A stretch of DNA of 32,000 nt from Vibrio tubiashii. GTDB taxonomy: Bacteria > Pseudomonadota > Gammaproteobacteria > Enterobacterales > Vibrionaceae. The stretch is taken from the NCBI GenBank assembly GCA_000775715.1, contig JRWQ01000001.1:510225-542224 (forward strand), written 5' to 3'. The position numbers and the translations under genes were made by a program. The notes beneath the pieces are model-generated. The model searched no databases. It worked only from the letters and a program-made list of their open reading frames with translations, and was not told the origin of the DNA. Positions 7,035 through 32,000 of the stretch are shown in pieces. Position 1 is the stretch's first letter, and every line of letters begins with the position of its first letter.

Positions 7035-7868
7035 TTATTCTTTTACTGCACCACTCACTAAGCCTGTGGTGATGTGTTTTTGAGTCGCAACAAAAAGCAG
7101 AGTGATCGGTATTGCTACCAGCAGAGAGCCTGCGGCAAACAGAGTGAAGTTTTCTGCCGAGTTAGAGGTGATCCAACTGAAAATACCAATAGCCAGAGTC
7201 ATTTTCTCTTCACTGCGTAAGATCAGAGTTGGCAGAATGAAGTCCATCCACGGGCCAGTAAATGACACCAGAGCGACAAACACCAAGATAGGTCTCGCCA
7301 GAGGTAAGATGATCTCGATAAAAATAGTCATATGCCCTGCACCGTCGATTTTTGCTGCCTCATCGAGCGAAGTCGGAATCGCGTCAAAGTAACCCTTCAC
7401 TAGCCAAGTCATAAACGGTAGCGAGCCAGCGACGTAGACAAACAACAGACCGGCGTAGGTATCGATCATATTAAGTTTCGATAGCAGGATATAAATCGCT
7501 GTCATCGATAAGAACGCAGGGAACATCTGCAATACCAGCACACCCATCAAGACATTGCGTTTGCCTTTAAATCGATAGCGTGAGAACACGTAAGCGGTCA
7601 TGGTGACCACCACCAGAGAAATCAGCATATTCGCCGTTGCCAGAGCGAAGGTGTTGAGATACCACTGCAAATAAGGGGTATCCTGAAACAGCGCCACATA
7701 ATGCTCTAGTGAAAAGCTCCAACCGGAAAACGAGGAGCTGAACATATTGCTGCCCGGTTTGAAGGACGCCAATACTGTCCAGATAACCGGCCCTAAAACC
7801 AGTAATGCATTGGTTAACAGGAACAGATAGACCAAACCTGTGGCTAATTTTTGCAACAGAAACTTCAT
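7035..7868 (-). CDS. MalG-like ABC sugar permease
   Basis: Multi-TM; EAAKIDGAGHMTIFIEIILPLARPI EAA loop; MalG-like C-terminus. Confidence 0.92.
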   Translation of the reverse strand: MKFLLQKLATGLVYLFLLTNALLVLGPVIWTVLASFKPGSNMFSSSFSGWSFSLEHYVALFQDTPYLQWYLNTFALATANMLISLVVVTMTAYVFSRYRFKGKRNVLMGVLVLQMFPAFLSMTAIYILLSKLNMIDTYAGLLFVYVAGSLPFMTWLVKGYFDAIPTSLDEAAKIDGAGHMTIFIEIILPLARPILVFVALVSFTGPWMDFILPTLILRSEEKMTLAIGIFSWITSNSAENFTLFAAGSLLVAIPITLLFVATQKHITTGLVSGAVKE

Positions 7869-9154
7869 TACTTCATCCCCACATCATCGCTAAACGAAGA
7901 CATCCGTCGGAACTGCCAGATCGCAATCACTGACAAAAACAAGAAAATAATTATCGAAATCACAGAGGCGATTTGGTACTGCTGGAAGTCGAGTGTGAGT
8001 TTGTAAATCCAGGTAATTAAGATGTCGGTATGCCCTGCAAATCGGTACTCAGGGTTGATCGGTCCGCCTTCGGTTAACAGGAAGATTGCGCCAAAGTTAT
8101 TGAAGTTATGGGCAAACGTCATCACCAGAGAAGGAGCGACCTGATGCAACACCATCGGTAGGGTGATTTCCCTGAACTGCTGGAACTTGTTGGCGCCATC
8201 GACCTCACTAGCCTCATAAAGATCTTGAGGTATGTTGGTTAAGGCTCCTGAAATAAGCAGCATGAAGTAGGGAGCACCGACCCAGACGCTGACCGCTATC
8301 ACCGTGACTTTCGCCATCCATGGATCGGAGAGAAAAGCAACGGAATCAAAGCCCCAGCTATTCAGGGTTGCATTGACCGGACCGACACCATTTAATAGCA
8401 GTCGGAACATCAGCAGAGTAACGAAAGCAGGAATCGCATAAGGTAAAATAAAAACGAAACGCCACGCTTTTTTCGCTTTGATGTTCTTGTTGGACAACGC
8501 CAGTGCCAGCACAAAACCAAAACCACAGGTACATATAGTCGCCAGAATCGCCCACATCACTGTCCAGGTTGCTACGCCAACAAAGGTATTCGACCAAATT
8601 CGCAGTTCAAACAGGGCGATAAAGTTCTTAAACCCGACCCAGTCAACCAAGTTCCTTGGCGGAATATGATGAGGCGCTGAGTAGTTGGTAAATGAGACCA
8701 GTACGGTGATGACAATCGGCATAATGATAAAGGCGATACTGGTTAACATTGCTGGAGAAAGCACCAGAAAAGCAAACTGTCGGTCATATATCGCTTTGAT
8801 CTGCTCGGACGCTGACATCTGACACGGCTGGCAGGATTTGGCATCATTGATGTTAAGTGCATAAAGGCACAGAAAAACAAACACCGCGATCAGAGCAATC
8901 ACACCTTCAACCAACAGGAAGACAGAGTGATCGCCCTGAATGATGGTGAAGCCTTCGCGTGTCTGAGCCACATCGCCAAGAGTAATGAGCTGCTTTAACG
9001 CCAGGCTAAGCTCTGGAATGCTAAAGATAAAAAGTAGCTGAATGAGCAACCAGACCAAGCCTTTTACCCAATGGCCCTGACGCATTTGCGTCAGGCCCAT
9101 GATAAGAACTGAAGCGTTGATCATTGGTTGCATTCGAGTTTGAGACAACAACAT
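7868..9154 (-). CDS. MalF-like ABC sugar permease
   Basis: Multi-TM; EASEVDGANKFQQFREITLPMV EAA loop; overlaps the MalG start by 1 nt. Confidence 0.9.
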   Translation of the reverse strand: MLLSQTRMQPMINASVLIMGLTQMRQGHWVKGLVWLLIQLLFIFSIPELSLALKQLITLGDVAQTREGFTIIQGDHSVFLLVEGVIALIAVFVFLCLYALNINDAKSCQPCQMSASEQIKAIYDRQFAFLVLSPAMLTSIAFIIMPIVITVLVSFTNYSAPHHIPPRNLVDWVGFKNFIALFELRIWSNTFVGVATWTVMWAILATICTCGFGFVLALALSNKNIKAKKAWRFVFILPYAIPAFVTLLMFRLLLNGVGPVNATLNSWGFDSVAFLSDPWMAKVTVIAVSVWVGAPYFMLLISGALTNIPQDLYEASEVDGANKFQQFREITLPMVLHQVAPSLVMTFAHNFNNFGAIFLLTEGGPINPEYRFAGHTDILITWIYKLTLDFQQYQIASVISIIIFLFLSVIAIWQFRRMSSFSDDVGMK

Positions 9155-10774: not shown

Positions 10775-11812
10775 GTGAACAGGACTGTACTCTCGCTCAG
10801 TATTGCTTGCGCTCTGAGCTCTGCACCTGCTGCTTTTGCTGCGGAAAAAGGACCGGCTCCCCAACAAATGGGCGGTAATATTCTGACTCAAGCCTTAGAT
10901 TTTGGCGGCCACGTTGGAACGTCGATTGAAATTGAAGACAAAGATATTACCAACTACAAAACCTGGGGTGGGCAAACAGAAAATGAACGCACTACCACCC
11001 ATGAAGTGATTGGACTGTTTTATAAAAACGCCCACTGGAACTTCTCGTCTTTGTACGCTTTTAAGTTGACTGACCGTGTTAAACGCAGTCAGGATCGCTC
11101 GTACACGGAAACGGAAGATGGCTATAAGCACCTGATTTCAATTGATAAAAAGTTCTCATTACCGAACGGTTTTGAAACTGGCGTTATCTATGACCTTGAA
11201 TACTCACTAGGTACTATTGCTACCACTGCTGGCGTGAGCAACCTGCGTACTACCAATGCAGAACACAGCATTCGCCCTTATCTCAACTTTTACAGCAATG
11301 AGTACGATGCAGGCTTCCAATCCAACCTTGAATACCTCTACAACGACGAAGATAAATCGGCGTGGGGCACTCGAGTTGAAGAAGGTTACTCGGTGTTAGT
11401 TAAGCCCTATAAACGTTTTGGTAACTGGGAGCTGGGTGTAGAGTTCTACTACCAGATTAAAGACAACAAAGCGCATAACAGTGATGGCTCAATTAACGAA
11501 ATTAGTGACTTTACTGAAAAGTATGTTGAGCCAATCGTACAGTACAGCTTTGAAGATGCTGGTACCTTATACGTTCGTGCCCGTTACGGTGAAAACGAAA
11601 CCAAACATACACAAGGTTGGGCTGCAGGAGAGCAGTACTTCAAAGATATTCGTAAAGCCACTATGGGTTACGAACAGTCTGTCGGTGATAACTGGTTGCT
11701 GAAAGGTGAGTACGAGTGGGCCAAAGATACTGAAACCTTCACTCAGCTTGCTGGAGAGGAGAAGGTCGTTGAGCAGAACACCTTCTTGCTCCAGGCTATT
11801 TACCGTCTGTAA
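10775..11812 (+). CDS. OmpG/CymA-like monomeric outer-membrane porin
   Basis: GTG start with AAGGA RBS; signal peptide MNRTVLSLSIACALSSAPAAFA; alternating amphipathic strands, terminal NTFLLQAIYRL. Confidence 0.8.
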   Translation: MNRTVLSLSIACALSSAPAAFAAEKGPAPQQMGGNILTQALDFGGHVGTSIEIEDKDITNYKTWGGQTENERTTTHEVIGLFYKNAHWNFSSLYAFKLTDRVKRSQDRSYTETEDGYKHLISIDKKFSLPNGFETGVIYDLEYSLGTIATTAGVSNLRTTNAEHSIRPYLNFYSNEYDAGFQSNLEYLYNDEDKSAWGTRVEEGYSVLVKPYKRFGNWELGVEFYYQIKDNKAHNSDGSINEISDFTEKYVEPIVQYSFEDAGTLYVRARYGENETKHTQGWAAGEQYFKDIRKATMGYEQSVGDNWLLKGEYEWAKDTETFTQLAGEEKVVEQNTFLLQAIYRL

Positions 11813-11840
11813 AAATCGTTTATTTGCTTAAGGAAATCCT

Positions 11841-12866
11841 ATGATCACAGTTTCAGAAATTGCCCAGTTAGTTGGCGGCCAGATAGATGGTGACCCGAGT
11901 TTAACTGTGGATACGATTGTGCCGCTGTATAGCCCTGATGAAGGGGGATTAGCTATCGTATTTTCTAAATCTGATCTCAAAATGATCGAAAGTTCAAAAG
12001 CGGATGTGATCATAGGACCTGATAGCATTTTAACCAGCAACGCCAGATGTAAGATAGTGATTGAGTCGCTTAAAGCGCAAACACTGAATGCCCTACTACG
12101 TTATTACAAAGTACATAAGTATCAACTGTTTGAGCAGGGTAATACCTCAGACAATCCCGATGTCTATATCGGCAAGCACTGCACTATTGGCAACAACTGC
12201 CACTTTATGCCTGGCGTAAAAATCATGAATGGTGTGACCATTGGCGACAATGTTGCAATTCATGCCAATACGGTGATTAAAGAGGGCACGGTGATTGGCA
12301 ATAACGTTACTATCGACTCCAACAACGCCATCGGTAATTTCAGCTTCGAATATATGAATGGCCAACATGGCGAGTTCGAACGAGTGGAAAGTGTCGGACG
12401 AGTTATCATCGAGGACGATGTTGAGATCGGCTGTAACAACACTATAGACCGTGGCACTCTGGGAAATACCGTGATTGGCAAAGGGACTAAGATAGATAAC
12501 CTAGTCCAGATTGGTCATGACTGTAAAGTGGGCCAACATTGTCTGCTGGTTTCTCAGGTAGGCTTAGCCGGACACACCGTTCTTGGCCAACATGTCATTG
12601 TTCACGGACAGGCTGGCACCGCTGGCCATATCACTATCGGTGACCACTCAGTCATCAAAGCTAAATCAGGCGTCAGCCAGTCATTTCCTGCTCATAGCGA
12701 CCTATTTGGTTACCCAGCCAAAGATGCTCGTGCTTATTACAAAAACCTGGCGGTGCTTAACAAGCTTACCCGCCAGTTTGATAGCAAAAAACACTCTAAA
12801 ACTACGCAAAAATCTGACCAGCCTAGCCACTGGCTTAAACGCTTATTCACTGGCTGTAAGGCCTAA
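11841..12866 (+). CDS. LpxD-like UDP-3-O-acyl-glucosamine N-acyltransferase paralogue (left-handed beta-helix)
   Basis: LpxD-like N-terminal domain; hexapeptide repeats; [31 protein letters not shown] matches the LpxD core; C-terminal helices with [15 protein letters not shown]. Confidence 0.85.
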
Positions 12867-12884
12867 TTCAATCGTTAAGGATTT

Positions 12885-13370
12885 ATGATGAAAAAAGTCA
12901 TTCTACCTCTATTACTCAGTGCTCTTGCTGCTGGCTGTTCCAGCACCAGTGAAAATACCAACCAAGTTATCCCGACCAATGCGGATAGTCTGCTGGCGAA
13001 ATGTGATTTGCCAACGGTTGAGGATCGCGGTCCGATTCGTCCGTCACTGTTTGTCGTCGGAACCTTTGATGAAGGTCAGTGGATTCACCTGGAAGACCGC
13101 GAAATGAGCCATAAGGGCGATGGCATCTATCAGGTTGTTCATCAAGAGAAAGCCGGTGTGGTTAATGTCCAGTTTGCAACTATGAACTGGAACCCGCAAT
13201 TCACAGTGTCGGGACGCAAAATGGGCGTCAATCAGGAAATCGCTCTGAAGCGCGGTGGTTTTGCTAAAAACACCCGAGTCGAAATCCCTGCTGATGGCGA
13301 GTATGTCTGGTCAATTCAGATTGGCGAAGATAAAAAGCCAATTCGCGCCATGATTGCCACTTGTCAGTAA
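12885..13370 (+). CDS. Small lipoprotein, possible glucan-binding beta-sandwich
   Basis: Lipobox LSALAAGC; SLFVVGTFDEGQWIHLEDREMSHKGDGIYQVVHQEKAG...VNVQFATMNWNPQFT resembles modules of starch enzymes. Track ORF 12885 start MMKKVIL or next Met. Confidence 0.7.
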   Translation: MMKKVILPLLLSALAAGCSSTSENTNQVIPTNADSLLAKCDLPTVEDRGPIRPSLFVVGTFDEGQWIHLEDREMSHKGDGIYQVVHQEKAGVVNVQFATMNWNPQFTVSGRKMGVNQEIALKRGGFAKNTRVEIPADGEYVWSIQIGEDKKPIRAMIATCQ

Positions 13371-13376
13371 TACCGT

Positions 13377-13399
13377 GCCGCCAGAGTTATTCTGGCGGC
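13377..13399 (+). repeat. Intercistronic hairpin between lipoprotein and malK-like gene
   Basis: GCCGCCAGA-gttat-TCTGGCGGC, 9-bp perfect stem, no T-run. Confidence 0.6.
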
Positions 13400-13472
13400 G
13401 TTAAGTTCATAGCTTAATGCACAAAGGTTGTGTCGTAAGTTATGAGTTTATAAAGCTTTATTTGGAGTACCC

Positions 13473-14612
13473 ATGGCAACAGTTAGCCTAAAACAAGTAG
13501 AAAAACAGTATGACAACGGCTTCAAGGCGGTACAAGGGATTGATCTCGAGATTAATGAAGGCGAATTCATGGTGTTTGTCGGCCCATCAGGCTGCGCTAA
13601 ATCGACCACACTAAGAATGATTGCTGGTCTTGAATCGATTTCATCTGGTGATGTTCATATTGGTGATCGCAGAGTCAACGATTTACCACCGAAAGATCGC
13701 GGAATCGCGATGGTGTTTCAAAACTACGCTCTTTACCCGCACAAGACAGTTTTCGACAACATGGCTTTCGGTCTAAAGATGGCGAAGAAACCCAAAGATG
13801 AAATTAAGAGAAGGGTTGAAGAAGCGGCAGAGAAATTAGAAATCACTGATCTCCTCTACCGTAAACCAAAAGAGATGTCTGGTGGTCAGCGTCAGCGTGT
13901 GGCGGTTGGTCGCGCTATTGTTCGTAAACCGGATGTATTTCTGTTCGATGAGCCACTATCGAATCTGGATGCCAAGCTGCGTGTCTCTATGCGGGTGAAA
14001 ATCGCCCAACTTCATCAGTCTCTTAAGGATGAAGGCAATCCGGCAACCATGATTTATGTTACCCACGATCAGACTGAAGCTTTGACGCTCGGTGACCGTA
14101 TCTGTGTTCTGAATCAGGGCAAGATCATGCAAGTTGATACGCCAGCGAACCTTTACAACTACCCAGCTAATCGTTTCGTTGCTAGCTTTATCGGCTCTCC
14201 GGCAATGAACCTAGTCGATACAGCGCTGCGTCGTGATGGTGAGAATCTTATCGTCGAAATTGCTCCGTCTGCCCGCATTCTGATCCCGAAAGCAATGCAA
14301 GCGGAGCTTGAGCAGTACGTCGACAACCCAGTCTGCTTTGGTATCCGTCCGGAGCATATCTCACTGGCACAAGAGGGTGAAACATTGAATACCTTCGAAG
14401 GCAAGCTGTCAGTCGTTGAAAATCTGGGGAACGAAAAATACCTCTATTTCACTGTTGGTGGCAAAGAGCTGATTGCCCGAGTGCAAGATCAGTCGATCAC
14501 GACAGCAGATATTGGTCGAACTTTCCGTTTCAACCTCAATACTGAATTCTGCCATATCTTCGATTTTTACAATGAAAACAACCTAATTCACAGTCGACCC
14601 TACTCGGCTTAG
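13473..14612 (+). CDS. malK: MalK/UgpC-type ABC transporter ATPase
   Basis: GPSGCAKSTTLRMIAG Walker [37 protein letters not shown], MalK-type C-terminal regulatory domain. Confidence 0.93.
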   Translation: MATVSLKQVEKQYDNGFKAVQGIDLEINEGEFMVFVGPSGCAKSTTLRMIAGLESISSGDVHIGDRRVNDLPPKDRGIAMVFQNYALYPHKTVFDNMAFGLKMAKKPKDEIKRRVEEAAEKLEITDLLYRKPKEMSGGQRQRVAVGRAIVRKPDVFLFDEPLSNLDAKLRVSMRVKIAQLHQSLKDEGNPATMIYVTHDQTEALTLGDRICVLNQGKIMQVDTPANLYNYPANRFVASFIGSPAMNLVDTALRRDGENLIVEIAPSARILIPKAMQAELEQYVDNPVCFGIRPEHISLAQEGETLNTFEGKLSVVENLGNEKYLYFTVGGKELIARVQDQSITTADIGRTFRFNLNTEFCHIFDFYNENNLIHSRPYSA

Positions 14613-14638
14613 TTAATGACAATAACGGGGAACCTCTA

Positions 14639-16603
14639 ATGATAAAACGGACACTGATTTGCAGCGCTCTGCTTGCGACAATGGCCATCGGAGGCGGATT
14701 TTCTGCACCAGCAATAAGTGCAGAAACCGCGGCTGACAGTAGCTACGATTTCAGGCAGGAGACTATCTATTTCGTCTTCTTAGATCGATTTAGTGATGGC
14801 GATGCGACAAACAACAGTGGCAATAACCCGTTGACGTACGACCCTAACAACCTCAAAAAGTATGTGGGTGGTGACATTAGAGGTTTGATCAACAAGCTGC
14901 CGTATCTCAAATCTCTCGGTATCACGGCGATATGGATTACTCCGCCGGTAGATAATGCCGACAACCTTGATGTTAATGGTGGGGCTGGTTACCACGGCTA
15001 CTGGGGTAAAGACTTCTTCCGCGTTGATGAGCACTTAGGCACCATGGACGACTTTAAAGAGTTGAGCCAGTTGATGCACAGCCCTGAATACAACATGAAG
15101 CTAGTACTGGATTATGCGCCAAACCACTCGAATGGTAACGATGAAAATGAGTACGGCGCCCTGTACCGTGACGGCCAGTACATTACTGATTACACCACTG
15201 ACGTTGCTGCTGGCACCAACTGGTATCACCACAATGGCGGTGTAACCGACTGGAATAACTGGTATCAGGTTCGTAACCACAATCTATTTAACCTTTCTGA
15301 CTTCAACCAGTCTAATGCTCAGGTTTACAACTACCTGTTGGATGGCGCTAAATTCTGGATTGATGCAGGTGTTGATGCCATTCGTATTGATGCGATTAAG
15401 CACATGGATAAAGCGTTTATCCAGCAATGGACAGGTGACATCTACAACTACGCATCGACTATTGGCCGCGATGGGTTTTACTTCTTCGGCGAGTGGTTTG
15501 GTGCCAGCGCAACGACAACCATAGGTATTGATGGTTATGCGATCGATTATGCCAATACTTCAGGTTCGGCACTGCTCGATTTTGGCTTCCGTGACACCTT
15601 AGAACGTGTGCTAGTTGGTCGCAGAGGCAACACCATGCAGACGTTAAACAGCTATCTGGAAACTCGCAGCAATGTGTTCACCAGCGATGACTGGCAGGTG
15701 GTATTTATGGACAACCATGATATGGCTCGTATCTCGACCGCGCTGCGTTCGACAGCCAGCACGTTCGGCCCAGGTAACAATGAAGAAGGGGGCGGCCTGT
15801 CAGAAGCGTTTGCCAAAAAACGCGTCGACCTGGGCTTGGTTGCGACTATGACGGTGCGTGGTATACCAGCCATCTACTACGGCACGGAACATTACAGCGC
15901 AAACTTCTCGACCAATGCGTTTGGTCAGGTTGGTAGCGATCCATACAACCGCGAAGTCATGCCAAGCTTCGCTCAGGACAGTGAAGCATTTAAGATCATT
16001 CAAGCTTTGACTGAGTTGAGAAAAACCAGTCCTGCGATTCAGCAAGGTAGCTACAGTCAGAAGTGGCTCAACGACGACATTCTGGTTTACGAACGTAAGT
16101 TTGAAGATGACGTTGTGCTAGTGGCTCTAAACCGAGGTGCTGCAACCTCAATTAATGTCTCTGCATTGTCTCTGGCGGACAACTACTACACCAGCCTGGT
16201 TGGTAGCGATGGTGTGACGGTATCTCAGTCTTCTGCGACGCTGAACCTTGACCAGAATGAAGCGATTGTCCTGCATGGCAAGACAACCAGTGGTGGCGGT
16301 AACACAGATCTTATCGACGTGACTTTCACTTGCAGTAACGGTTACACCCAGTGGGGACAAAACGTTTATGCAGTTGGCAGTGCTAGCCAGTTGGGTAGTT
16401 GGGCGCCAGCGCAAGCAGTGAAACTGGATCCAGCCGTTTACCCAACATGGCAAGCAACCATTCAGGTTCCAAGTGGCGAGTCCTTAGAATGGAAATGTCT
16501 GAAGCGTTCAGAAAGTGATAGCAGTGCGCTGATTGAGTGGCAATCGGGTGGCAACAATACGGTGAATACCAGCACACAAACTCAAACCAGCGGCGCATTT
16601 TAA
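14639..16603 (+). CDS. Secreted GH13 cyclodextrin glucanotransferase-like enzyme with C-terminal CBM20
   Basis: Signal peptide; GYHGYWGKDFFRVDEHLGTMDDF, DAGVDAIRIDAIKHM, FFGEWFG, VFMDNHDMARI; C-terminus DVTFTCSNGYTQWGQNVYAVGSASQLGSW...LEWKCLKR (CBM20). Confidence 0.88.
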   Translation: MIKRTLICSALLATMAIGGGFSAPAISAETAADSSYDFRQETIYFVFLDRFSDGDATNNSGNNPLTYDPNNLKKYVGGDIRGLINKLPYLKSLGITAIWITPPVDNADNLDVNGGAGYHGYWGKDFFRVDEHLGTMDDFKELSQLMHSPEYNMKLVLDYAPNHSNGNDENEYGALYRDGQYITDYTTDVAAGTNWYHHNGGVTDWNNWYQVRNHNLFNLSDFNQSNAQVYNYLLDGAKFWIDAGVDAIRIDAIKHMDKAFIQQWTGDIYNYASTIGRDGFYFFGEWFGASATTTIGIDGYAIDYANTSGSALLDFGFRDTLERVLVGRRGNTMQTLNSYLETRSNVFTSDDWQVVFMDNHDMARISTALRSTASTFGPGNNEEGGGLSEAFAKKRVDLGLVATMTVRGIPAIYYGTEHYSANFSTNAFGQVGSDPYNREVMPSFAQDSEAFKIIQALTELRKTSPAIQQGSYSQKWLNDDILVYERKFEDDVVLVALNRGAATSINVSALSLADNYYTSLVGSDGVTVSQSSATLNLDQNEAIVLHGKTTSGGGNTDLIDVTFTCSNGYTQWGQNVYAVGSASQLGSWAPAQAVKLDPAVYPTWQATIQVPSGESLEWKCLKRSESDSSALIEWQSGGNNTVNTSTQTQTSGAF

Positions 16604-19608: not shown

Positions 19609-20244
19609 ATGCAGATTTTTGAACAATTTGAAGCTCAATTTTTGGAATTTATCAACACAGAGATGACCCAAGATCCGGCCCATGATCTTAGCCACGTAAA
19701 ACGGGTGGTAAAAACAGCTAAAACGCTCTGCATACAAGAGAATGCCGAGTTGAACATCGTCGTGCCTGCTGCCTACCTTCACGACTGTTTTACTTTCGCC
19801 AAAGACCATCCTGAACGAGCCAAAAGCTCGGTTATAGCAGCAGATAAAGCGGTCAAACTTCTCGAATCAATAGGCTACCCAGAGAAATATTTCAGCGCCA
19901 TTCATCACGCCATTATGACTCACAGTTACAGTGCGAATATCACTCCAGAAACTCTAGAAGCTCAAATCGTTCAAGATGCAGATCGCCTCGATTCACTTGG
20001 TGCCATTGGCATAGCCCGCTGTATACAAGTAAGTACTAGCTTCGGTTCAAGCCTCTACAACACCGAAGACCCATTCTGTGACAGTCGAGTGTTGAATGAC
20101 AAGCGCTACACTATCGACCACTTCTACAACAAGCTATTCAAACTAGAAGCTTTAATGAACACTCAAGCCGCCAAAACAGAAGCGAACAAACGTACTCAAT
20201 ACATGCGAGCATTCTTAGCTCAACTAGAGTGTGAAATATACTAG
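19609..20244 (+). CDS. HD-domain phosphohydrolase
   Basis: [38 protein letters not shown]. First Met after upstream extension at 19609. Confidence 0.88.
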
Positions 20245-22533: not shown

Positions 22534-23352
22534 ATGAGTAGTCTGGCTCAACTACTATCGACAACCACAATGCAAAACTTACTTTCAAAGGAGTGGAAGT
22601 CTATCGAATGGGTCTTAACTGACGTCGATGACACTCTTACTTGGCAAGGAAAACTTCCAACAGAAACACTAGTCGCGCTCAGCCAACTACAGCAACATGG
22701 AATTAAAGTTGTTGCCGTTACTGGAGCGTGCGCGGGTTGGTGCGACCATATTGCTCAACTGTGGCCGGTTGATGCTGTTCTAGGAGAAAATGGCGCGTTT
22801 ACCATAGAAAACGGTTGCAAAGGAGTAACCCTCACGAGTTCAGTTCCAATTGATGAAATGCGGTCTCTACAAGCCAAACTCAAACATCAGGTGGAGGCGA
22901 TACTCACCGAGTACCCAGATGTGAACCTTACTCTCGATCAAGCTTATCGCCTATGTGAAGTCGCCATTGACATTGGTCAGAACCGCGAACCTTTAGCAAG
23001 TGATGTGGTCGATCAAATAGTAAGAGAAATACACGCTTTAGGCGCACACGCGACAGCAAGCTCAATCCATATTAATGCGTGGTATGGCGCTCACTCTAAA
23101 CGAGCTAGCACTTACTCGTTTCTCAAAAGTAAAGGGCTATTAGAGCAAGATATCTTGAATAAATGCTGTTATGTCGGTGATTCACTCAATGATCAGCAAA
23201 TGTTTGAAACACTGCCATTTACCGTTGGAGTCGACAATATACGTCAATACTGGGATAAACTGACCCACAAGCCATCGAAAGTCATGTCACTACCCGGAGG
23301 GTTTGGTTTTGCTGAGTTTACCCGACAGTTACTGATACAAAAGGCGACATAG
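22534..23352 (+). CDS. HAD-superfamily hydrolase (HAD-IIB-like)
   Basis: WVLTDVDDTLTWQGKLP, VVAVTGACAGW, GENGA, CCYVGDSLNDQQMFE. Confidence 0.87.
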   Translation: MSSLAQLLSTTTMQNLLSKEWKSIEWVLTDVDDTLTWQGKLPTETLVALSQLQQHGIKVVAVTGACAGWCDHIAQLWPVDAVLGENGAFTIENGCKGVTLTSSVPIDEMRSLQAKLKHQVEAILTEYPDVNLTLDQAYRLCEVAIDIGQNREPLASDVVDQIVREIHALGAHATASSIHINAWYGAHSKRASTYSFLKSKGLLEQDILNKCCYVGDSLNDQQMFETLPFTVGVDNIRQYWDKLTHKPSKVMSLPGGFGFAEFTRQLLIQKAT

Positions 23353-23732: not shown

Positions 23733-24536
23733 TTAAATCAATTTCTTACGTACATGTACTACCAGCGCTTCGGCCAAAATAACGACCGCAAAAATGCTGA
23801 CTAGAACCATCGACACCTTTTGCCACTCGAATAGGTTTTGTGCGTCGTTAAGCACCACACCAATGCCGCCAGCGCCCACTAAACCAAGTACTGCTGACTC
23901 ACGTACATTAATGTCCCAACGGAACAACACAATCGAGAAAAAGGCTGGCATCACTTGCGGCCAGTACCCTTTGAACAAAATACTCATCCAAGGTGCGCCT
24001 GTTGCCTTTAGCGCTTCAATCGTTCCCATGTTCACTTCCGCAATCGCTTCTGCGAGTAGCTTGCCGACAAAGCCAACGCTTCGAACGGCAATCGCCATTA
24101 TCCCAGCTAGAACACCCGGACCAAACAGCGCAATGAACAACAACGCCCATACCAGCGAGTTAACGGAGCGCGACGACACTAAAAAAAACTGTGCAATCCA
24201 GTTCAACGTTTTGCTCGGGGTAATATTCGGCGCATTCAGTAATGCCAATGGAATAGCCAGTCCCAATGTGAACAAAGTACCCAAAGTGGCAATATGCAGG
24301 GTTTCAATCATTGCTGCGTGAATGGTTTGTGGGTAAAACGCGTAGTCTAGCGGTACCATTCGACCAAACATATCTGCAAACTGAGCAGGTGCGTCATAAA
24401 GAAACTCTGGAATGATCTCAACAGTCTGCCAAGACCAAACAATCGCCGAAACAAAACACAAATAAGCAGCGAACCTCGCGAGACGCTCGTTGAACGTAAA
24501 ACGTTGCCATTCTTTATCAATAGAAGCGGTTGTCAT
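23733..24536 (-). CDS. phnE: PhnE-type ABC permease (second)
   Basis: SRSVNSLVWALLFIALFGPGVLAGIMAIAVRSVGFVGKLLAEAIAEVNMGTIEALKATGAP. Confidence 0.9.
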   Translation of the reverse strand: MTTASIDKEWQRFTFNERLARFAAYLCFVSAIVWSWQTVEIIPEFLYDAPAQFADMFGRMVPLDYAFYPQTIHAAMIETLHIATLGTLFTLGLAIPLALLNAPNITPSKTLNWIAQFFLVSSRSVNSLVWALLFIALFGPGVLAGIMAIAVRSVGFVGKLLAEAIAEVNMGTIEALKATGAPWMSILFKGYWPQVMPAFFSIVLFRWDINVRESAVLGLVGAGGIGVVLNDAQNLFEWQKVSMVLVSIFAVVILAEALVVHVRKKLI

Positions 24537-25336
24537 CAGAAGATTCTCCTTACTACATTAGACAAAAACTCACCGACAAGAATCAGCGCAATAATGGTGA
24601 TCAGAATAGCTGCAACAAAGTCGTAATCAAAACGCTGAAATGCTGAGAACAGTGTGCCGCCCAAGCCCCCCGCACCTACGATGCCGACCATAGTTGAATT
24701 ACGTAGATTCGAGTCTAACTGGTAGCTAGCAAAACCAATGAAGCGAGTGAAAACCTGCGGCATCACCGCAAACAAAATAACCCCAACAAAGCTTGCGCCA
24801 GTAGCTCTAATCGCTTCAACTTGCTTAAAAGAGATCTCTTCGATAGCTTCAGCAAACAGCTTGGCAATAAAGCCAATCGACGCAAACACTAAGGTCAAAA
24901 TCCCTGCTAACGCTCCAAATCCCACCGCTTTAACAAATAAAATGGCGATAATCACTGGGTGAAATGAACGACACAGAGCAATAAAGCCACGCACTGGGCT
25001 AGATACCATTGAGGGCATCATATTTCTTGCCGCCAACAGGCCTAAAAACAAGGAGATGACAATACCAAAAAAACTCGAGATGATGGCTATCTGCAAACTC
25101 TCAGCTAAGCCGCTAAGAAGTAGGTTAGAGCGAGAAAAGTCCGGCGGGAACATCCTAGAAAGCAAGCGCTCACTTTCACCAAAACCTATAATTAAACGGT
25201 CAAAACTAAGATTGAGTGTCGAGAAGCTGTAAAACAGATACGCAATAACAGCAACGACTCCCAGTCGGCTCGCCCAGGAAGCTTTAAATGGATTTTCTAC
25301 ACTTGTCGATGTCGGGGATGAACTTAATCCAGCCAT
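24536..25336 (-). CDS. phnE: PhnE-type ABC permease (first)
   Basis: [59 protein letters not shown]. Confidence 0.9.
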
Positions 25337-26109
25337 GATTCACCCCCATAGATAATCTTAAGATCTTCCTCACTGATTCCCTCAGGGCTACCATCGTAGT
25401 GAACTTTGCCGTTACACATACCTATGATGCGATTGGCGAAACGTTTAGCTAAGTTCACGTCATGAATATTGACTAGTACAGGGATCTGTTTGTCTTTGGC
25501 AAATGTCTCCATCAACTCCATGATTTCTACTGCTGTCTTAGGGTCAAGAGAAGAGGTTGGCTCATCGGCCAGTAAGATATATGGGTCTTGCATGACTGCA
25601 CGCGCAATACCAACACGCTGACGCTGACCACCAGAAAGGCTATCTGCACGCTGATTAGCGAAATCCTGTAGCCCAACGAATTCCAGCAGTTCAAATGCTT
25701 TCTTTAGGTCTTCTGCCGAGTAATTACGTCGCCATGCGTTCCATGAAGACATGTAACCTAAACGCCCACTAAGTACGTTTTCAATCACCGTCAGCCTTTC
25801 GACCAAGTTGTACTCTTGGAAAACCATACCGATATGACGACGCTGTTTACGCAATGCTTGGCCTTGTAGCTTAGTTAGGTCTTCACCTTCAAATAAAATT
25901 TCCCCACTGGTTGGGTCATTCAAGCGGTTGATACAACGCAGTAAGGTACTTTTGCCTGTACCGGAAGGGCCAATGATGGCGATGATGCCCGGCTGATCGA
26001 TATCAATATCGATGCCTTTAAGGATTGGCTTGCCTGCTACATATTCATGAAACAGGTTATTGATCTTTATTCCGTCGTATTTTGTTTCGTTACAGCTTGC
26101 TACGGCCAT
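25324..26109 (-). CDS. phnC: PhnC-type ABC ATPase
   Basis: [51 protein letters not shown]. Confidence 0.93.
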
Positions 26110-26211: not shown

Positions 26212-27252
26212 TTATTGGCTGGTTGCTTGCTTCGCTAGTTCAGCCGCTTTTTTCTTAGCACGCTTCGCTGCGTCTTTTTCAGCAAGCTTCTTCAGGCCAG
26301 TTTTGGTGTAAGCCGTGCCTGTTGCATGCGCGATATCGCGAATTACAGACCAGTCTTCTTGGTAAGTGATTGGAGAGAAACGATCCGCGCCTTTAAACGC
26401 TTGGCTCATTTCTGGAGTAAATCGGTAGCTAAAGAAAGCTTCATTAATTTTCTCTACCAACTCTGGTTTAAGGTTGTGTGCATAGCCAAATGCAGAAGTA
26501 GGGAAACGTGGACTGCGATAAATGATCTTAAGCTCAGAATCATCAACACGACCTGCGGCTACCATACGGTCATACACATCAGATGCAACTGGAGCTGCGT
26601 CGTAGTCTCCGTTATATACACCTAAAATAGATTGGTCATGTTTGCCTGAGTAAAGTACTTTATAGTCTTCATCAGGAACGAGACCTTGAGCAGGAAAGAG
26701 TGCACGCGGCGCTAAGTTACCTGAGTTGGATGAAGCAGAAGTATGAGCAACTCGCTTACCTTTAAGATCTGCCATATCGTTGATACCGCTATCTTTACGT
26801 ACAATGGTCACTAGGTTATAGCCTTGGAAGCCCGCTTCATCACCTTTAACCGCAATTGGCACGTAGCCCGCTAAGTTTACGGCATATCCTGTAGGTCCAG
26901 TGGAGAAGCCTGCTACATGCAAACGACCTGAGCGCATTGCTTCAACCTGAGCAGAGTTTGAGTGAACCGTGTAGTAAATGACCTTTTTACCCGTGATCTT
27001 GCTTAGGTGTGCTTGAAAGTCAGCAAAAGCATCTTTATAAAGCGCTGGGTCTTCTACTGGTGTATAAGTAAATACTAGCGTACTTGGGTCTATCCATTCA
27101 CTTGCATCTTTTGGTGCGTCAGCGACCAAGTCTTGGTTTTCATCACAGTATCTTTCATCCAGCACCCCGCGATTTGCACACTCACTTGCCATTACCATCG
27201 ATGGAAGCAGCAAAGAGCCAGCGATTAACAATCCTTTTACACTGTTTTTCAT
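26212..27252 (-). CDS. phnD: PhnD-type periplasmic binding protein
   Basis: Signal peptide MKNSVKGLLIAGSLLLPSMVMAS; FTYTPVEDPALYKDAFADFQAHLSKITGKKVIYY; DLKGKRVAHTSASSNSGNLAPRALF. Confidence 0.92.
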   Translation of the reverse strand: MKNSVKGLLIAGSLLLPSMVMASECANRGVLDERYCDENQDLVADAPKDASEWIDPSTLVFTYTPVEDPALYKDAFADFQAHLSKITGKKVIYYTVHSNSAQVEAMRSGRLHVAGFSTGPTGYAVNLAGYVPIAVKGDEAGFQGYNLVTIVRKDSGINDMADLKGKRVAHTSASSNSGNLAPRALFPAQGLVPDEDYKVLYSGKHDQSILGVYNGDYDAAPVASDVYDRMVAAGRVDDSELKIIYRSPRFPTSAFGYAHNLKPELVEKINEAFFSYRFTPEMSQAFKGADRFSPITYQEDWSVIRDIAHATGTAYTKTGLKKLAEKDAAKRAKKKAAELAKQATSQ

Positions 27253-27298: not shown

Positions 27299-27314
27299 AG
27301 CAGGGGACGTGCCA
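27299..27314 (-). promoter_or_regulatory. Sigma-54 promoter for phnD operon
   Basis: Minus strand TGGCACG-TCCC-CTGCT matches TGGCACG-N4-TTGCW with invariant GG/GC at correct spacing. Confidence 0.85.
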
Positions 27315-27373
27315 ATTATTTTAATTATTATTTTCAATAACTTACTCTACATACCACTCTCTTAGATTTCATT

Positions 27374-27422
27374 TGGGTCATTTCTGTCTAGCTGATGTGA
27401 TTCTATTTGGGTCATTTCTGTC
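27374..27422 (-). promoter_or_regulatory. Tandem upstream activator-type sites for phnD promoter
   Basis: TGGGTCATTTCTGTC at 27374-27388 and 27408-27422 (identical, 34-bp period); each is an imperfect dyad GGGTCA-N4-TGTCyy. Confidence 0.75.
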
Positions 27423-27440
27423 CCAGTACCTTTGATGCTC

Positions 27441-27462
27441 AAAAAAGGGCTCGAAAGCCCTT
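27441..27462 (-). terminator. Rho-independent terminator of the GDPD gene
   Basis: AAGGGCT-cgaa-AGCCCTT with plus-strand aaaaaa at 27441-27446 (U-run on the minus strand). Confidence 0.85.
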
Positions 27463-27503
27463 ATATTATTTCGAAAAACATACGCGCTGAGACGTTGGTT
27501 CCT

Positions 27504-28715
27504 TTAGATATCCATACAGTTAGCGTAGTAAGTCACGGTAGAAGGCCAATCACTGAACACGCCCAGCACTCCAACATCTTGTGCCAAAACATCAAGTACG
27601 TTCATCATGTCACCATCTTGATTGATCTGTTCAGTCACCGTTTGATAGTACCAACCACCACCTTGCGCAAGCGGCCCTGAACGCTCCAACGTCCAAGCAA
27701 TAATGTCGAGATCAGCTTGTTTTGCCAGCTTGGCGTACTCAGACGCGACAATCGAATTGTTATCATCAAGCTGTATCAACGCATAAAGTGGCGGAGCGAT
27801 GATCTGCACGCCCTGTTTTGATAACGCTTTCATATTTTCTAAGGTTGCTGTGAAACCTTCTAAGTTGTACACGCGATCATCGAGATACACTGCTTGTTTG
27901 CCAAACTCAGGTTCATTGTTGATCCAGTACTTCACATCGTCGAGATTGAATGACTGAACATACGCATCTTTCGCAGAGAACCCTGCTGCTTTCAGCTCAT
28001 CAACCAGTTTCTGAGCGTACATCTCTTGGCTAAAGCCTTGATAAGGCATCTCAACTTTTGCTGACTTAAGCTCTGGAGTGACCTTTACGCCATGCTTTTT
28101 GAATAGTTCAGCACTTTCTGCATGGGTCATTAACGTACCTGTCTGCGAGTACAAATCAGTTCGCCAACCAGGTGTGCCACTCATGTACTCTTCAATAGTG
28201 GTCGCTTTCGGGTTTGCGCCATCCATTTTACCTTTAAGAGTTTTAAACTCCGCCAAAGTAAAATCAGAAGTACGGCACTCAACTTGCGCATCTTCACCCG
28301 TTTCTGGGTTAGCTGGCTTAAATGGTACCGAGCATTTCTTCGCTAGCTCTGGGTGAGCAAGAACATCCGTGGTGGTATGCAAGTCACTTTGTGAATGACG
28401 ACAGACAAGCTGTTTATCTTTAGTAAACGTAACATCGCACTCCAAAACCCCTGCCCCCATTGCAATCGCAGCCAAATAAGACTCCTTAGTATGCTCAGGA
28501 AATTGCATCGCCGCGCCGCGGTGGCCAATTGAAAAGTCACTGCGATAGAATGGGCCATCACTACAGCTTTCAAGCTTAGTTTTGAGCGGACTCTCTTCCA
28601 TATCACTCACGAGATAGATAGGGCGAGGGCCAACCTGCGCCGGTTCATTACCCGCCATGGCTATTGCGCTAACACCTAACAATAGAGCGATACTACTGGT
28701 TAAGATATGCTTCAT
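27504..28715 (-). CDS. Periplasmic glycerophosphodiester phosphodiesterase (GlpQ/GDPD-like)
   Basis: Signal peptide [21 protein letters not shown]; [47 protein letters not shown]. Track start 28853 is upstream of the promoter; start 28715 has GGAGAAAC RBS. Confidence 0.92.
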
Positions 28716-28825
28716 CTGTTGTTTCTCCTTGCAGCAAATAGTTATTAGTTTATGTCGCTCTGGCTTTATGAAGTTCTTACGCGTTAATGCAACTCCCTGA
28801 CTTCTCGCCAGAACCATAAGCAATT

Positions 28826-28841
28826 TGCACGCAACGTGCCA
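28826..28841 (-). promoter_or_regulatory. Sigma-54 promoter for GDPD gene
   Basis: Minus strand TGGCACG-TTGC-GTGCA; -24 element perfect, -12 GC at correct spacing. Confidence 0.87.
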
Positions 28842-28900
28842 AAAACTTTTCACTTACAATTCAATCAGATAAACATCACAGGATTATTTAACTTCTGTGA

Positions 28901-28915
28901 TGGGTCAATTGTGTC
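28901..28915 (-). promoter_or_regulatory. Upstream activator-type site for GDPD promoter
   Basis: TGGGTCAATTGTGTC, 13/15 identical to the phnD upstream sites and at the identical 60-bp offset from the sigma-54 element. Confidence 0.7.
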
Positions 28916-30263
28916 TTGCGGTTTGCGACTTAAAACTGTCTTTGTCTAGTTGATGCTTTTTCATCTTTCGATACAGGGTTTTACGTGGCAGATTTAACCG
29001 CAGCGAAACCTCATTGATGTTGCCCGCAGTCTCAATCAGAGCTTCTGTTAGCACATTTAGCTCGTACTGCTCCATCTGCTGCTCAAAAGCAAACGCCTCA
29101 CTGCCTTGAGTTGAAGGTGCTTGGAGGTCAAAACCCTCACCCACAATACCTAAGACGAATCGATCAGCAACGTTTCTTAGCTCTCGGACATTCCCCGGCC
29201 AGTCATGACGACATAACTGCTGAATTTGTTCAGCATAGAGTGTCGAAGCTCGCGTTTTATATTTTTGACTCGCTTGAACCACAAAATGCCTAAACAGAGA
29301 TTGGATATCCTCTTTTCGCTGGCGCAAAGGCGGTAAATTCAAGCTAGCGATATTGAGTCGATAGAAGAGATCGGCCCTAAACTCTCCACGCTGACTTAAC
29401 TCAGCTAAGTCAGCTTTGCTCGCGGCAACGACAACAATATCGACAGGAATGAGGGTATTGCCTCCCACACGTTCAATCACACGTTCTTGGATAACTCGCA
29501 GCAGTTTAATTTGCACCGAAATTGGCATGCTTTCTATTTCATCGAGGAATAGTGTGCCACCATGCGCTTGCTCAATTTTGCCAATTCGCTTCTTATTGGC
29601 GCTGGTAAATGACCCGGCCTCATGACCAAACAGTTCGCTCTCAATGATGCTCTCTGTCATACCACCGCAGTTGATGGCAACAAACGGTTTATCGCGGCGC
29701 ATCGAGTAGCGATGTAAGGCACGCGCTATCACCTCTTTGCCCGTGCCAGTCTCTCCGTTGATGATGGTATCAACGCCGGTTCGAGCCAGAGCCAATACTT
29801 GACTGCGCACCATCTCCATCTGATTAGAGACACCAATAACGACATTCTCTATAGGTAGCTCAGGAGATTCCGAAGCCTGGCACGAAACACTCTGGACATG
29901 CGTCGAGGCTAAGTTGAGCTTTTCAAGTAACTCATCACTTTGCAATGGCTTCTCGATAAAATCAAAAGCACCCAACTTCATCGCTTCAATCGCCATGGGT
30001 ATATCACCATGACCACTCATCAAAATAACTTCACAAGCAGGCGCACGGCTTTGAATCGCATCCAGCATTGATAATCCATCAAGCTGAGGCATACGAACAT
30101 CGCAAAGCACAACTTGTTTGCTGTCGGGTACGAGCGACTTTAATCCCGCTTTAGGGTTGGTAAAGCTAGTTACGTGAAAGCCTTCAAGCTCTAACATTTC
30201 TCTCAGCGCCTCCACCACATCAAACTCATCGTCTATCAGGGTAACTTGCTTTTCCATTGTCAT
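28905..30263 (-). CDS. DctD-like sigma-54-dependent response regulator (REC-AAA+-Fis HTH)
   Basis: LIDDEFDVVEALREML...VVLCDVRMPQLDG; GETGTGKEVIARALH; GSFTSA in place of GAFTGA; C-terminal ETAGNINEVSLRLNLPRKTLYRKMKK HTH. Confidence 0.93.
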   Translation of the reverse strand: MTMEKQVTLIDDEFDVVEALREMLELEGFHVTSFTNPKAGLKSLVPDSKQVVLCDVRMPQLDGLSMLDAIQSRAPACEVILMSGHGDIPMAIEAMKLGAFDFIEKPLQSDELLEKLNLASTHVQSVSCQASESPELPIENVVIGVSNQMEMVRSQVLALARTGVDTIINGETGTGKEVIARALHRYSMRRDKPFVAINCGGMTESIIESELFGHEAGSFTSANKKRIGKIEQAHGGTLFLDEIESMPISVQIKLLRVIQERVIERVGGNTLIPVDIVVVAASKADLAELSQRGEFRADLFYRLNIASLNLPPLRQRKEDIQSLFRHFVVQASQKYKTRASTLYAEQIQQLCRHDWPGNVRELRNVADRFVLGIVGEGFDLQAPSTQGSEAFAFEQQMEQYELNVLTEALIETAGNINEVSLRLNLPRKTLYRKMKKHQLDKDSFKSQTARHN

Positions 30264-32000
30264 GATTTCACGCCTTTTAAATAAACTACAAACTCACTGC
30301 CCTGCTGTGGCTGCGAGCTCACCCGAATTGAACCGCCAAAATCCTTAATGATGTTAAAAGCGATAGAGAGCCCTAACCCCAAACCCTTGCCCACCTCTTT
30401 TCGGGTATAAAATGGGTCAAAAATATGGGGAATATCATCAGCTAAGATACCTTTGCCATTATCTTTGACCGCAATGGTGACTGACTCTTCCGATCGAGAA
30501 ACGGAGACCGAAATAACAGGTTCAGGGGTCATCTCAACAGCATCAATCGCATTACTGATGAGATTCACCAACACTTGCTCTAAGCGGATTGGATTGGCGC
30601 GAACACTTTCATTTGCTGAAAGGTTGCAGTCTAGAACGATAGGAACTTGCTTATTGGCAAACAGTTCGATGGCGTCATTCACGACAGGCATTACCGCAAC
30701 GGAAGAAATCTTCCCATCACTTTTACGTGAGAAAGCTTTCAAATGATGGGTTAACGCGGCCACCTTACCGAGTAAGGTTTCAATCTTATTTAAGTTATCG
30801 GTCGCTTTATCTAAACGATCTTGCTCCAACCACTTCTTCGCGCTGCGAGTATGGCTACTGATAGCAGTTAGAGGCTGATTTATTTCATGGGTGATACCAA
30901 CACTCAACTGCCCCAACGCAGCCAGTTTCCCTGCCTGAACGAGCTCATCTTGCGTCACTCTCAATCTCTCTTCTGCCAATCTTCGCTCTACCACCTCTGC
31001 TTCAAGTTTTAAGTTAGTTTTCTTAACCGCTTTCGCCGTAGCCTGAAACACCTGTAACGACTTTGCCATCTGGGTAATCTCATCCTGCCCTTTCACAACA
31101 ATGTTCGTATGTAAGTGCCCAGTGGAAATCGCGAACATATCGTCTTTAAGGTTGAGCAAACGCTCTAGTATATTTTTACGCACATAAAACCAAGCAATCG
31201 CGGCCGCCGCAATCAGACTGAGCATGGAAAGGACAAGTGAAAAGGTACGATTTGAAGCTAGTGACGCTTGTACATGAGCGATAGACGAGTCTATTTCTAA
31301 ATTCACGTTAGACGTATTGCGCTCGATCTGAACCGAAAGTTGGTGCAAATACTTTCGGCTATTTTCTAGCAAAAATTCCTGTTGATAATGATGCTCCAAC
31401 GCTTGATTTTTTAGTTGCACTAACCGACTTGAACGAGAGGCAAGGGTGTAAATAACCGAAAGCTTTTCATCCAATGCAGGTAAAGACTCCGCTAACCCAC
31501 TGGCTAGCCACAAGTTAAACCAGTCTTGCCCAAGCTGCTCCAATCGATAAGTGGTGTAATCCAACTCATTAAAACTGCCATCGTTATACAGCTTTTCAAC
31601 TAAACCTAACTGATAAAACAATAACGCTTTCAACTGACTATATTGCAGACGTGACTTTTGTTCTTCAGGTAGGCGATCTAGCTCTTCACTCACCTGCTGC
31701 AACAGAGGATAAAAACCTTCGAGCAAATTTCTTAGCTGCTTATTGAGCTCACGTGACTCTTCGCCACTTTGATAAAGCAAACTCAAACTGTTACTCACCT
31801 GCATGATCAGGTCTTTAAAGTAAGCGTGATACTCAGGAAAATGCGCAAGCACTCGGTTCATTTCATCGATGCTGTCTTCAATCCTCACCATAGAACTGCG
31901 CCTTTCAAGGTTTGAGTCCGCAGCCACAAGTTGAGAAGAGTCAGTAATCACCAAACGCACCATGTCATTCAATCTAGCGGCCTGCTCCAACGCAGGAATT
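30260..32000 (-). CDS. DctB-like sensor histidine kinase, N-terminus beyond window
   Basis: HAMP and HisKA (LAALGQLSVGITHEINQPLTAISSHTRSAKKWLEQ), HATPase (NLISNAIDAV, DNGKGI, GKGLGLGLSIAF). Frame open past the track start 31990 to the window end. Confidence 0.92.
   Translation of the reverse strand, partial: IPALEQAARLNDMVRLVITDSSQLVAADSNLERRSSMVRIEDSIDEMNRVLAHFPEYHAYFKDLIMQVSNSLSLLYQSGEESRELNKQLRNLLEGFYPLLQQVSEELDRLPEEQKSRLQYSQLKALLFYQLGLVEKLYNDGSFNELDYTTYRLEQLGQDWFNLWLASGLAESLPALDEKLSVIYTLASRSSRLVQLKNQALEHHYQQEFLLENSRKYLHQLSVQIERNTSNVNLEIDSSIAHVQASLASNRTFSLVLSMLSLIAAAAIAWFYVRKNILERLLNLKDDMFAISTGHLHTNIVVKGQDEITQMAKSLQVFQATAKAVKKTNLKLEAEVVERRLAEERLRVTQDELVQAGKLAALGQLSVGITHEINQPLTAISSHTRSAKKWLEQDRLDKATDNLNKIETLLGKVAALTHHLKAFSRKSDGKISSVAVMPVVNDAIELFANKQVPIVLDCNLSANESVRANPIRLEQVLVNLISNAIDAVEMTPEPVISVSVSRSEESVTIAVKDNGKGILADDIPHIFDPFYTRKEVGKGLGLGLSIAFNIIKDFGGSIRVSSQPQQGSEFVVYLKGVKS

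Follow-up and report, generated by a model that had tools for sequence, protein, structure and literature searches.

Several described bacterial systems resemble a gene cluster on a 32,000-nucleotide stretch of the Vibrio tubiashii genome (contig JRWQ01000001.1; hereafter the window), in which genes for a sensor histidine kinase and an NtrC-family response regulator stand before a gene for a glycerophosphodiester phosphodiesterase (GDPD) and a four-gene operon for an ATP-binding cassette (ABC) transporter. We propose that the GDPD gene and the transporter operon are, very probably, two separate sigma-54 transcription units that the adjacent response regulator activates together from conserved enhancer sites. 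The NtrB/NtrC system acting at glnAp2 offers the same combination of a receiver, an AAA+ and a Fis-type helix-turn-helix (HTH) domain in the activator, with dyad sites about 100-140 bp from a -24/-12 promoter. The two NtrC sites of glnAp2 are 32 bp apart, or about three helical turns, as compared with 34 bp at the transporter promoter of the window. Unlike NtrB, the window kinase is membrane-bound with a periplasmic sensor, and the signal and the regulon differ as well. The NtrC site reads TGCACC-N5-GGTGCA, whereas the site in the window reads TGGGACA-N4-TGACCCA, and the regulator scores 384 bits with the NtrC equivalog model, below its cut-off of 559.

The DctB/DctD pair at dctA likewise places a membrane kinase and a sigma-54 regulator beside the transporter that they induce, with tandem upstream sites, and the H-box of the window kinase is of the HE(I/L)NQPL type, as in DctB. 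A preliminary description of this DNA had called the regulators DctB/DctD-like, an identity that we rejected: the predicted sensor is all-helical and TorS-like with no Cache/PDC match in Pfam, and what the pair would induce is a phosphodiesterase with a GpxB-type ABC importer, in place of a C4-dicarboxylate carrier of the DctA type. The PgtB/PgtA(/PgtC) system at pgtP of Salmonella is another NtrC-family pair, and it induces the uptake of a three-carbon organophosphate. Orthology with this system was also rejected. The window proteins score 300.6 bits against a cut-off of 650 for PgtA and 224.4 against 1000 for PgtB, the best NCBIfam match of the kinase, which covers the C-terminal (transmitter) half only and leaves the sensor domain unmatched. 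The cargo here is an ABC system together with a GDPD, and neither pgtC nor pgtP was found in the window or upstream of the kinase gene in two related loci (L001 and L003). No NCBIfam equivalog cut-off was reached by either the kinase or the regulator.

With respect to function, the glpTQ and ugpBAECQ operons of E. coli also pair a scavenging glycerophosphodiesterase with a glycerol-3-phosphate importer. Their control falls to the GlpR repressor together with CRP, or to PhoB, and acts at sigma-70 promoters, in contrast to the predicted sigma-54 activator of the window. The window GDPD is itself distant from GlpQ, the E. coli and Haemophilus GlpQ proteins being its nearest solved relatives (E 1e-9). 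Our literature search found no description of this regulator, its operator motif or its regulon.

Sigma-54 promoters and conserved upstream sites

The features of the locus are collected in Table 1. The sigma-54 elements that the preliminary description had quoted before the GDPD gene and before a gene that it called phnD were recovered with the same sequences and positions, and are the only two matches to TGGCAC-N6-TGC in the window (minus strand, 27300-27314 and 28827-28841). By chance 0.28 matches would be expected, and two or more were obtained in 5 of 100 shuffles of the window. Both elements are correctly oriented 5' of minus-strand genes, 110 bp (GDPD) and 47 bp (binding protein) before the start codon, and both carry GG and GC doublets 10 bp apart in a sequence of the TGGCAC-N5-TTGCW type; the transcription starts were predicted by assigning -24 and -12 to these doublets. 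The GDPD gene was taken to start at the ATG at 28715. This codon is preceded by a GGAG ribosome-binding site and is the common start of homologues of 402-406 aa that align over the full query. The GTG start at 28853 of the mechanically called open reading frame was rejected in its favor, so the promoter at 28826-28841 truly lies upstream of the gene.

Table 1. Features of the kinase-GDPD-transporter locus, with positions counted from the first nucleotide of the window
Feature	Position	Strand	Description
Sensor histidine kinase	30260-32000	-	5' end beyond window edge; HAMP, HisKA, HATPase_c (Pfam); ~650 aa in L001
Sigma-54-dependent response regulator, NtrC family	28905-30263	-	452 aa; Response_reg, Sigma54_activat, AAA_lid_14, HTH_8 (Pfam)
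Predicted activator site, GDPD promoter	28901-28918	.	gene strand CAAGACA-CAAT-TGACCCA; centre ~-94.5
IHF-like block, GDPD promoter	28856-28870	-	core ATTGAA 28860-28865; T.A....TTG.AAT columns conserved in alignment
Sigma-54 promoter of GDPD gene	28826-28841	-	TGGCACGTTGCGTGCA; predicted transcription start ~28815
Periplasmic glycerophosphodiester phosphodiesterase (GDPD family)	27504-28715	-	403 aa; Pfam GDPD E 1.2e-23; N-terminal signal peptide
Intrinsic terminator after GDPD	27441-27462	-	minus strand AAGGGCUUUCGAGCCC then U6; RNAfold -12.1 kcal/mol
Predicted distal activator site, transporter promoter	27408-27425	.	gene strand TGGGACA-GAAA-TGACCCA; centre ~-128.5
Predicted proximal activator site, transporter promoter	27374-27391	.	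gene strand CTAGACA-GAAA-TGACCCA; centre ~-94.5
IHF-like block, transporter promoter	27329-27343	-	gene strand TAAGTTATTGAAAAT; core ATTGAA 27333-27338
Sigma-54 promoter of transporter operon	27299-27314	-	TGGCACGTCCCCTGCT; predicted transcription start ~27288
Periplasmic substrate-binding protein	26212-27252	-	PhnD family by sequence; GpxB-type by closest characterised relative
ABC transporter ATPase	25324-26109	-	NCBIfam PhnC/PhnE models matched above cut-off for ATPase and permeases
ABC permeases (two)	24536-25336 and 23733-24536	-	NCBIfam PhnC/PhnE models above cut-off

Three exact matches to TGGGTCAWTTSTGTC were found in the window, at 27374, 27408 and 28901, all on the plus strand, in agreement with the three TGGGTCA-type sites reported previously. 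With up to two mismatches the window holds four matches against an expectation of 0.25, a number reached by none of 100 shuffles; the fourth (two mismatches, at 19656) falls within an unrelated HD-domain gene that has no sigma-54 element close by. The repeated motif is thus real, but the true site is longer than had been noted. It spans 18 bp as an imperfect inverted repeat that reads TGGGACA-N4-TGACCCA on the gene strand (half-sites TGGGACA/TGGGTCA, 4-bp spacer), and the distal transporter site at 27408-27425 is the best palindrome among the three.

To compare the locus across species, we assembled 80 loci with GDPD relatives, of which 28 are syntenic (in the order kinase, regulator, GDPD, binding protein, ATPase, two permeases) and 52 are non-syntenic; the window brings the syntenic set to 29. 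The site scans covered the 32-kb window, 397 kb of syntenic loci and 595 kb of non-syntenic loci. The syntenic loci represent numerous Vibrio clades as well as Moritella, Photobacterium profundum and Alginatibacterium. Regulator identity among them goes down to 68% and kinase identity to 53%, and they include one from Vibrio sp. M260118 (L001) that is 98-100% identical to the window at the protein level. In every one of the 29 loci, one site and a sigma-54 element precede the GDPD gene, and two sites and a sigma-54 element precede the binding-protein gene, with TGGCA(C/T)-N6-TGC kept at the GDPD promoter throughout. The GDPD-promoter site follows the consensus aaGACAnnAaTGACCCAt in all of them. 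On the gene strand, the consensus sequences are tgGGACA-nAaa-TGACCCAAA for the distal site, tGGACA-nnaa-TGAC(C/T)CAaa for the proximal site and aaGACA-nnAa-TGACCCAt for the GDPD-promoter site, the right half-site being almost invariant across the three positions.

The pattern GGACA-N4-TGACCCA, allowing one mismatch, has 94 matches in the 397 kb of syntenic loci, and 87 of these fall at the three expected positions. The remaining seven share one position, at about 6578-6581 in the GDPD coding sequence (L002, L007, L010, L015, L016, L025 and L027), and by our reading are a coding coincidence from the conserved peptide GTLMTH. In the intergenic alignments, the sites, a block resembling a binding site for integration host factor (IHF), the -24/-12 element, the terminator and the ribosome-binding-site region are conserved, while the remainder has diverged.

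The spacing within the promoters was followed across the same loci. In the window, the site starts 60 bp from the -24 end at both promoters (27314 to 27374 and 28841 to 28901), and the second transporter site begins 34 bp further, just as the preliminary description had measured. Its claim of exact spacing conservation very nearly holds for the transporter promoter, where the distal site stands 109 bp ahead of TGGCA throughout the 29 loci and the proximal site 75 bp ahead in 27 of them (76 bp in L030 and L031). It does not hold for the GDPD promoter, at which the spacing is 2 bp longer in the Splendidus clade, Moritella, Photobacterium and Alginatibacterium, 3 bp longer in V. barjaei and 10 bp shorter in V. 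penaeicida-like genomes. Because of these differences among clades, the exact equality of 60 and 60 bp is lineage-specific; equal spacing at both promoters occurs only in genomes of the Orientalis clade, to which the Vibrio of the window belongs. The 10-bp shortening is consistent with a face-of-the-helix constraint. Similarly, the overlap of the GDPD site with the 3' end of the regulator gene holds in the window but is lineage-specific: the TGA of TGACCC doubles as the regulator stop codon in the window, L001 and L005 only, and the regulator ends earlier elsewhere.

Between site and promoter, both regions carry an ATTGAA core at an identical offset, 36 bp past the site and 18 bp ahead of TGGCAC. 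At the transporter promoter the TAA-N4-TTGAA columns of the block are kept in nearly all species, and its plus strand, TTTCAATAACTTA, fits the IHF consensus WATCAANNNNTTR at 12 of 13 positions by direct reading; on this resemblance the ATTGAA blocks are putative IHF sites. The two 60-bp spacers are 45% identical (27/60 positions, shuffle p ~0.02), with the identity concentrated in the ATTGAA block. Since the spacers are otherwise dissimilar, the shared promoter layout is architectural, and a recent duplication was rejected as the source of the equal spacing.

The adjacent regulator and the two transcription units

The regulator encoded directly upstream of the GDPD gene has the domains of a sigma-54-dependent activator, with Pfam E-values of 2.5e-28 (Response_reg), 6.2e-64 (Sigma54_activat) and 1.9e-9 (HTH_8). 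Its HTH segment, LN(L/I)PRKTLYRKMKKH, is invariant in the 27 orthologues read, save one L-to-I replacement (L029). The preliminary description had proposed two promoters of one regulon driven by the adjacent activator, and this proposal gains support from the conservation in 29 of 29 loci, the loss or decay of the sites where the regulators are missing, the terminator after the GDPD gene, a peptidase gene that separates the two units in one species, and the domains and invariant HTH of the regulator.

Certain observations weigh against it. The sigma-54 contact loop of the regulator, aligned to Aquifex NtrC1, is GSFTSA and not the canonical GAFTGA, with the F and T retained; the same loop (window 29610-29630, residues ~212-224) is present in 25 of the 27 orthologues, and the other two have GSFTGA and GAFTSA. 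The left half-site of the GDPD-promoter site is poorly conserved. The IHF-like match is imperfect, and the block at the GDPD promoter is imperfect against WATCAANNNNTTR. Finally, in Aliivibrio kagoshimensis (L028) the GDPD gene is still preceded by an intact site and sigma-54 promoter (5857-5950), with no regulators within 6 kb. In this species two relic sites, 32 bp apart, follow the GDPD terminator (7286-7340) with no transporter operon behind them; either the regulators are encoded elsewhere in the genome, or another activator can use the site.

The A. kagoshimensis locus, 13 kb in length and devoid of regulators, would be explained if the sites were generally bound by some other activator, such as another enhancer-binding protein or a global regulator, and the adjacency of the regulator were coincidental. 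We regard this as very unlikely. Among the 80 GDPD loci, presence of the sites follows presence of the regulator pair almost perfectly: the sites are missing from 51 of the 52 loci that lack the regulators, and the 595 kb of non-syntenic loci contain only six matches to GGACA-N4-TGACCCA at up to one mismatch, three of them in A. kagoshimensis. The sites also decay upon loss of the pair. In V. bivalvicida (L004), the GDPD is 94% identical to that of the window, the kinase, regulator and transporter genes are absent, and in the homologous region upstream (L004 5750-5900) both the site, now GGTATAAATAACTCAA, and the -24 element, now TGGTAT, have decayed. GDPD homologues at a greater distance (Shewanella, Cellvibrio and others) were found with no regulators, sites or promoters of this kind. 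Moreover, the invariant HTH parallels the invariant TGACCCA half-site, and sigma-54 promoters require an enhancer-binding protein, one of which is encoded directly upstream.

The GDPD gene and the transporter operon, which are on one strand and 250 bp apart, might alternatively form a single operon read from the upstream promoter, with the second promoter and its sites as non-functional relics of a duplication. The similar architecture of the two promoter regions and their 45% identical spacers could be read in this way. This arrangement is highly improbable, however, in view of the terminator that follows the GDPD gene. As the preliminary description had claimed, the gene ends in a terminator of its own, and the hairpin and T-run are kept in 16 aligned species with compensatory stem changes (GGGC/GCCC, GAGC/GCUC, GGGU/ACCC). 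A simple terminator scanner called the hairpin on the plus strand only, because the stem had absorbed two of the T residues. In V. ouci, an M28 peptidase gene on the opposite strand (L002 7274-8389) is inserted between the GDPD and transporter genes, and both sites and the sigma-54 element remain with the transporter; the GDPD gene and the transporter operon are therefore two transcription units. The transporter promoter is also better conserved than that of the GDPD gene, with two sites at near-invariant spacing in 29 loci, and outside the functional blocks the spacers are dissimilar. As a separate observation on the GDPD transcript, a leader block, TTTGCTGCAAGGAGA (~28718-28741, minus strand), is conserved from Vibrio to Photobacterium and Aliivibrio and exceeds the needs of a ribosome-binding site; a scan of the leaders and intergenic regions, this block included, gave no Rfam match at E-values up to 1.

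Since the cargo is an organophosphate scavenging system, membership in the PhoB regulon was considered as well, as for ugp and phn of E. coli, with the repeated TGTC/GTCA motif as a variant Pho box. Gpx transporter operons of Marinobacter and Salinivibrio, which have no regulator genes beside them, do carry Pho-box-like sequences upstream, for example CTGTCATTAAGTTGTCAC (L083 7926-7943 in Salinivibrio; L081 ~7929-7947 in Marinobacter), and no adjacent two-component system, GDPD gene or sigma-54 element was found at these operons. This suggests phosphate-starvation control of gpx in those lineages. For the window, control by PhoB appears remote: the best match to the Pho box (CTGTCAT-N4-CTGTCAT) in either promoter has 6-7 mismatches in 18 positions, and what is conserved are inverted half-sites 4 bp apart, as opposed to direct repeats of 11 bp. 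The motif lies ~70 bp upstream of a -24/-12 element and not beside a -10 box, and the only sigma-70-like element in the two promoter regions, a 9/12 match on the gene strand that overlaps the -24 of the GDPD promoter, does not rise above shuffles. That the motif has been kept through shared ancestry alone, without function, is hardly credible even though many loci come from related Vibrio species, given that flanking intergenic DNA is unalignable between clades while the sites keep sequence and spacing, that the conservation reaches Moritella and Alginatibacterium, and that the motif decays fast after loss of the regulators.

Transporter cargo and the predicted signal

The preliminary description had labeled the transporter Phn-type, a label that we replace. 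The best match of the binding protein in the PDB is the crystallised Marinobacter GpxB (9lf9_A; E 1.3e-83, 48% identity), followed by PtxB (1e-27) and E. coli PhnD (3e-15), and its score with the PhnD equivalog model, 133.9, is below the cut-off of 261. In GpxB the ligand is contacted by T111, G112, Y138, S168, N169, S170, H199, R223 and T247; the pair R223/T247 takes the place of E177/D205 of PhnD, and Arg223 separates GpxB from the aminoethylphosphonate-binding PhnD (PMC12718374). Eight of the nine contacts are identical in the window protein, including Arg223, and the ninth is a replacement of Thr247 by Ser in which the hydroxyl is kept. Because GpxB is by far the closest solved relative and these contacts are preserved, the transporter is most likely an importer of glycerol-1/3-phosphate, as predicted from sequence for the Vibrio protein. 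The operon of the window also has the four-gene layout of GpxBACD, as in the gpx operons of Marinobacter and Salinivibrio.

In contrast to GpxB of Marinobacter, the Vibrio binding protein has an extra C-terminal tail. Its last ~25 residues (window 26212-26290) are rich in Lys and Ala, ...AEKDAAKRAKKKAAELAKQATSQ, and lie beyond the region aligned to Marinobacter GpxB; the Marinobacter homologues are 315-316 aa long and lack such a tail. A HAD-IIB hydrolase gene (22534-23352, plus strand) converges on the transporter operon and keeps this place in roughly half of the related loci, and Marinobacter gpx operons finish with another HAD-like hydrolase gene. A role as glycerol-phosphate phosphatase is conceivable for the HAD-IIB protein; we left its gene outside the regulon, since no activator site or sigma-54 element was found upstream of it. 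Elsewhere in the window, at 10775-16603, is an unrelated cyclodextrin/maltodextrin cluster encoding a CymA-type porin, a hexapeptide transferase, a MalK-like ATPase and an alpha-amylase with CBM20.

The sensor domain of the kinase was analyzed with the full-length protein of L001, which has two transmembrane segments around a periplasmic domain of ~270 aa. This domain gave no Pfam match, including none to a Cache type. An AlphaFold model (AF2; predicted local distance difference test, pLDDT, 72.7) consists of helices only, and the best match to it in a Foldseek search of the PDB, the TorS sensor of V. parahaemolyticus (3i9y; E 1.4e-4, template modelling scores 0.57/0.71), belongs to a set that includes TorS-TorT complexes; a DctB-type Cache sensor is excluded on the basis of this model. 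At an E-value of 1e-4 and a model pLDDT of 73 the match to TorS is marginal, and the helical bimodular (HBM) domains of the chemoreceptors McpS and PilJ, which bind ligands directly, score nearly as well. A homologue search with the sensor domain returned 12 proteins, mostly fragments and all from Vibrionaceae, Moritella or Veronia, and this small and narrow set provided no informative distant relatives. TorS senses through a periplasmic binding protein, and the regulon described here encodes one, GpxB, which is a candidate partner only. Unlike the window kinase, TorS is a hybrid kinase that acts on an OmpR-family regulator at sigma-70 promoters, and no TorT homologue is present at the window locus.

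These elements can be assembled into a working model of a self-contained regulon, in which the GDPD unit is monocistronic. The membrane kinase would detect a periplasmic cue through its TorS/HBM-like helical sensor, most likely glycerol-phosphate or a glycerophosphodiester that is sensed directly or by way of the loaded binding protein. It would then phosphorylate the NtrC-family regulator, which is predicted to bind the 18-bp imperfect palindromes, one at the GDPD promoter (~-94.5) and two at the transporter promoter (~-94.5 and ~-128.5), and to oligomerise there. A bend at the IHF-like site near -45 may aid contact with sigma-54 RNA polymerase at -24/-12, and the regulator would drive promoter opening with ATP; transcription of both units would accordingly depend on rpoN. 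With a shared activator at both promoters, the GDPD and the importer would be induced together, and the secreted GDPD would produce the substrate of the transporter from glycerophosphodiesters, releasing glycerol-phosphate from lipid headgroups. A more specific version, in which the kinase reads the occupancy of GpxB loaded with glycerol-1/3-phosphate through the TorS-like sensor, would make the system a positive-feedback, Pho-independent sigma-54 circuit for the use of lipid-headgroup carbon; we consider this version unlikely at present.

The circuit is of the standard NtrC type and is a new instance rather than a new concept. As the type is textbook, the value of the finding is in annotation and physiology. 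A paper of December 2025 introduced GpxB as the first transporter known to act on archaeal glycerol-1-phosphate (G1P), and reported it in roughly 5-10% of surface-ocean cells; in Phaeobacter it is induced by G1P and glycerol-3-phosphate, and its regulation was left by the authors for future study (PMC12718374). For the Vibrionaceae, the locus gives a testable regulatory model of GpxB, with a kinase/activator pair, an operator of 18 bp and a pair of sigma-54 promoters through which a secreted phosphodiesterase is coupled to an importer. Set against the Pho-box-like gpx operons of Marinobacter and Salinivibrio, the sigma-54 locus suggests that the transporter is wired to phosphate starvation or to substrate availability according to lineage. 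If sensing of GpxB occupancy is true, it would be the first regulatory mechanism described for GpxB transport, and the headgroups of bacterial and archaeal lipids would serve as a carbon source.

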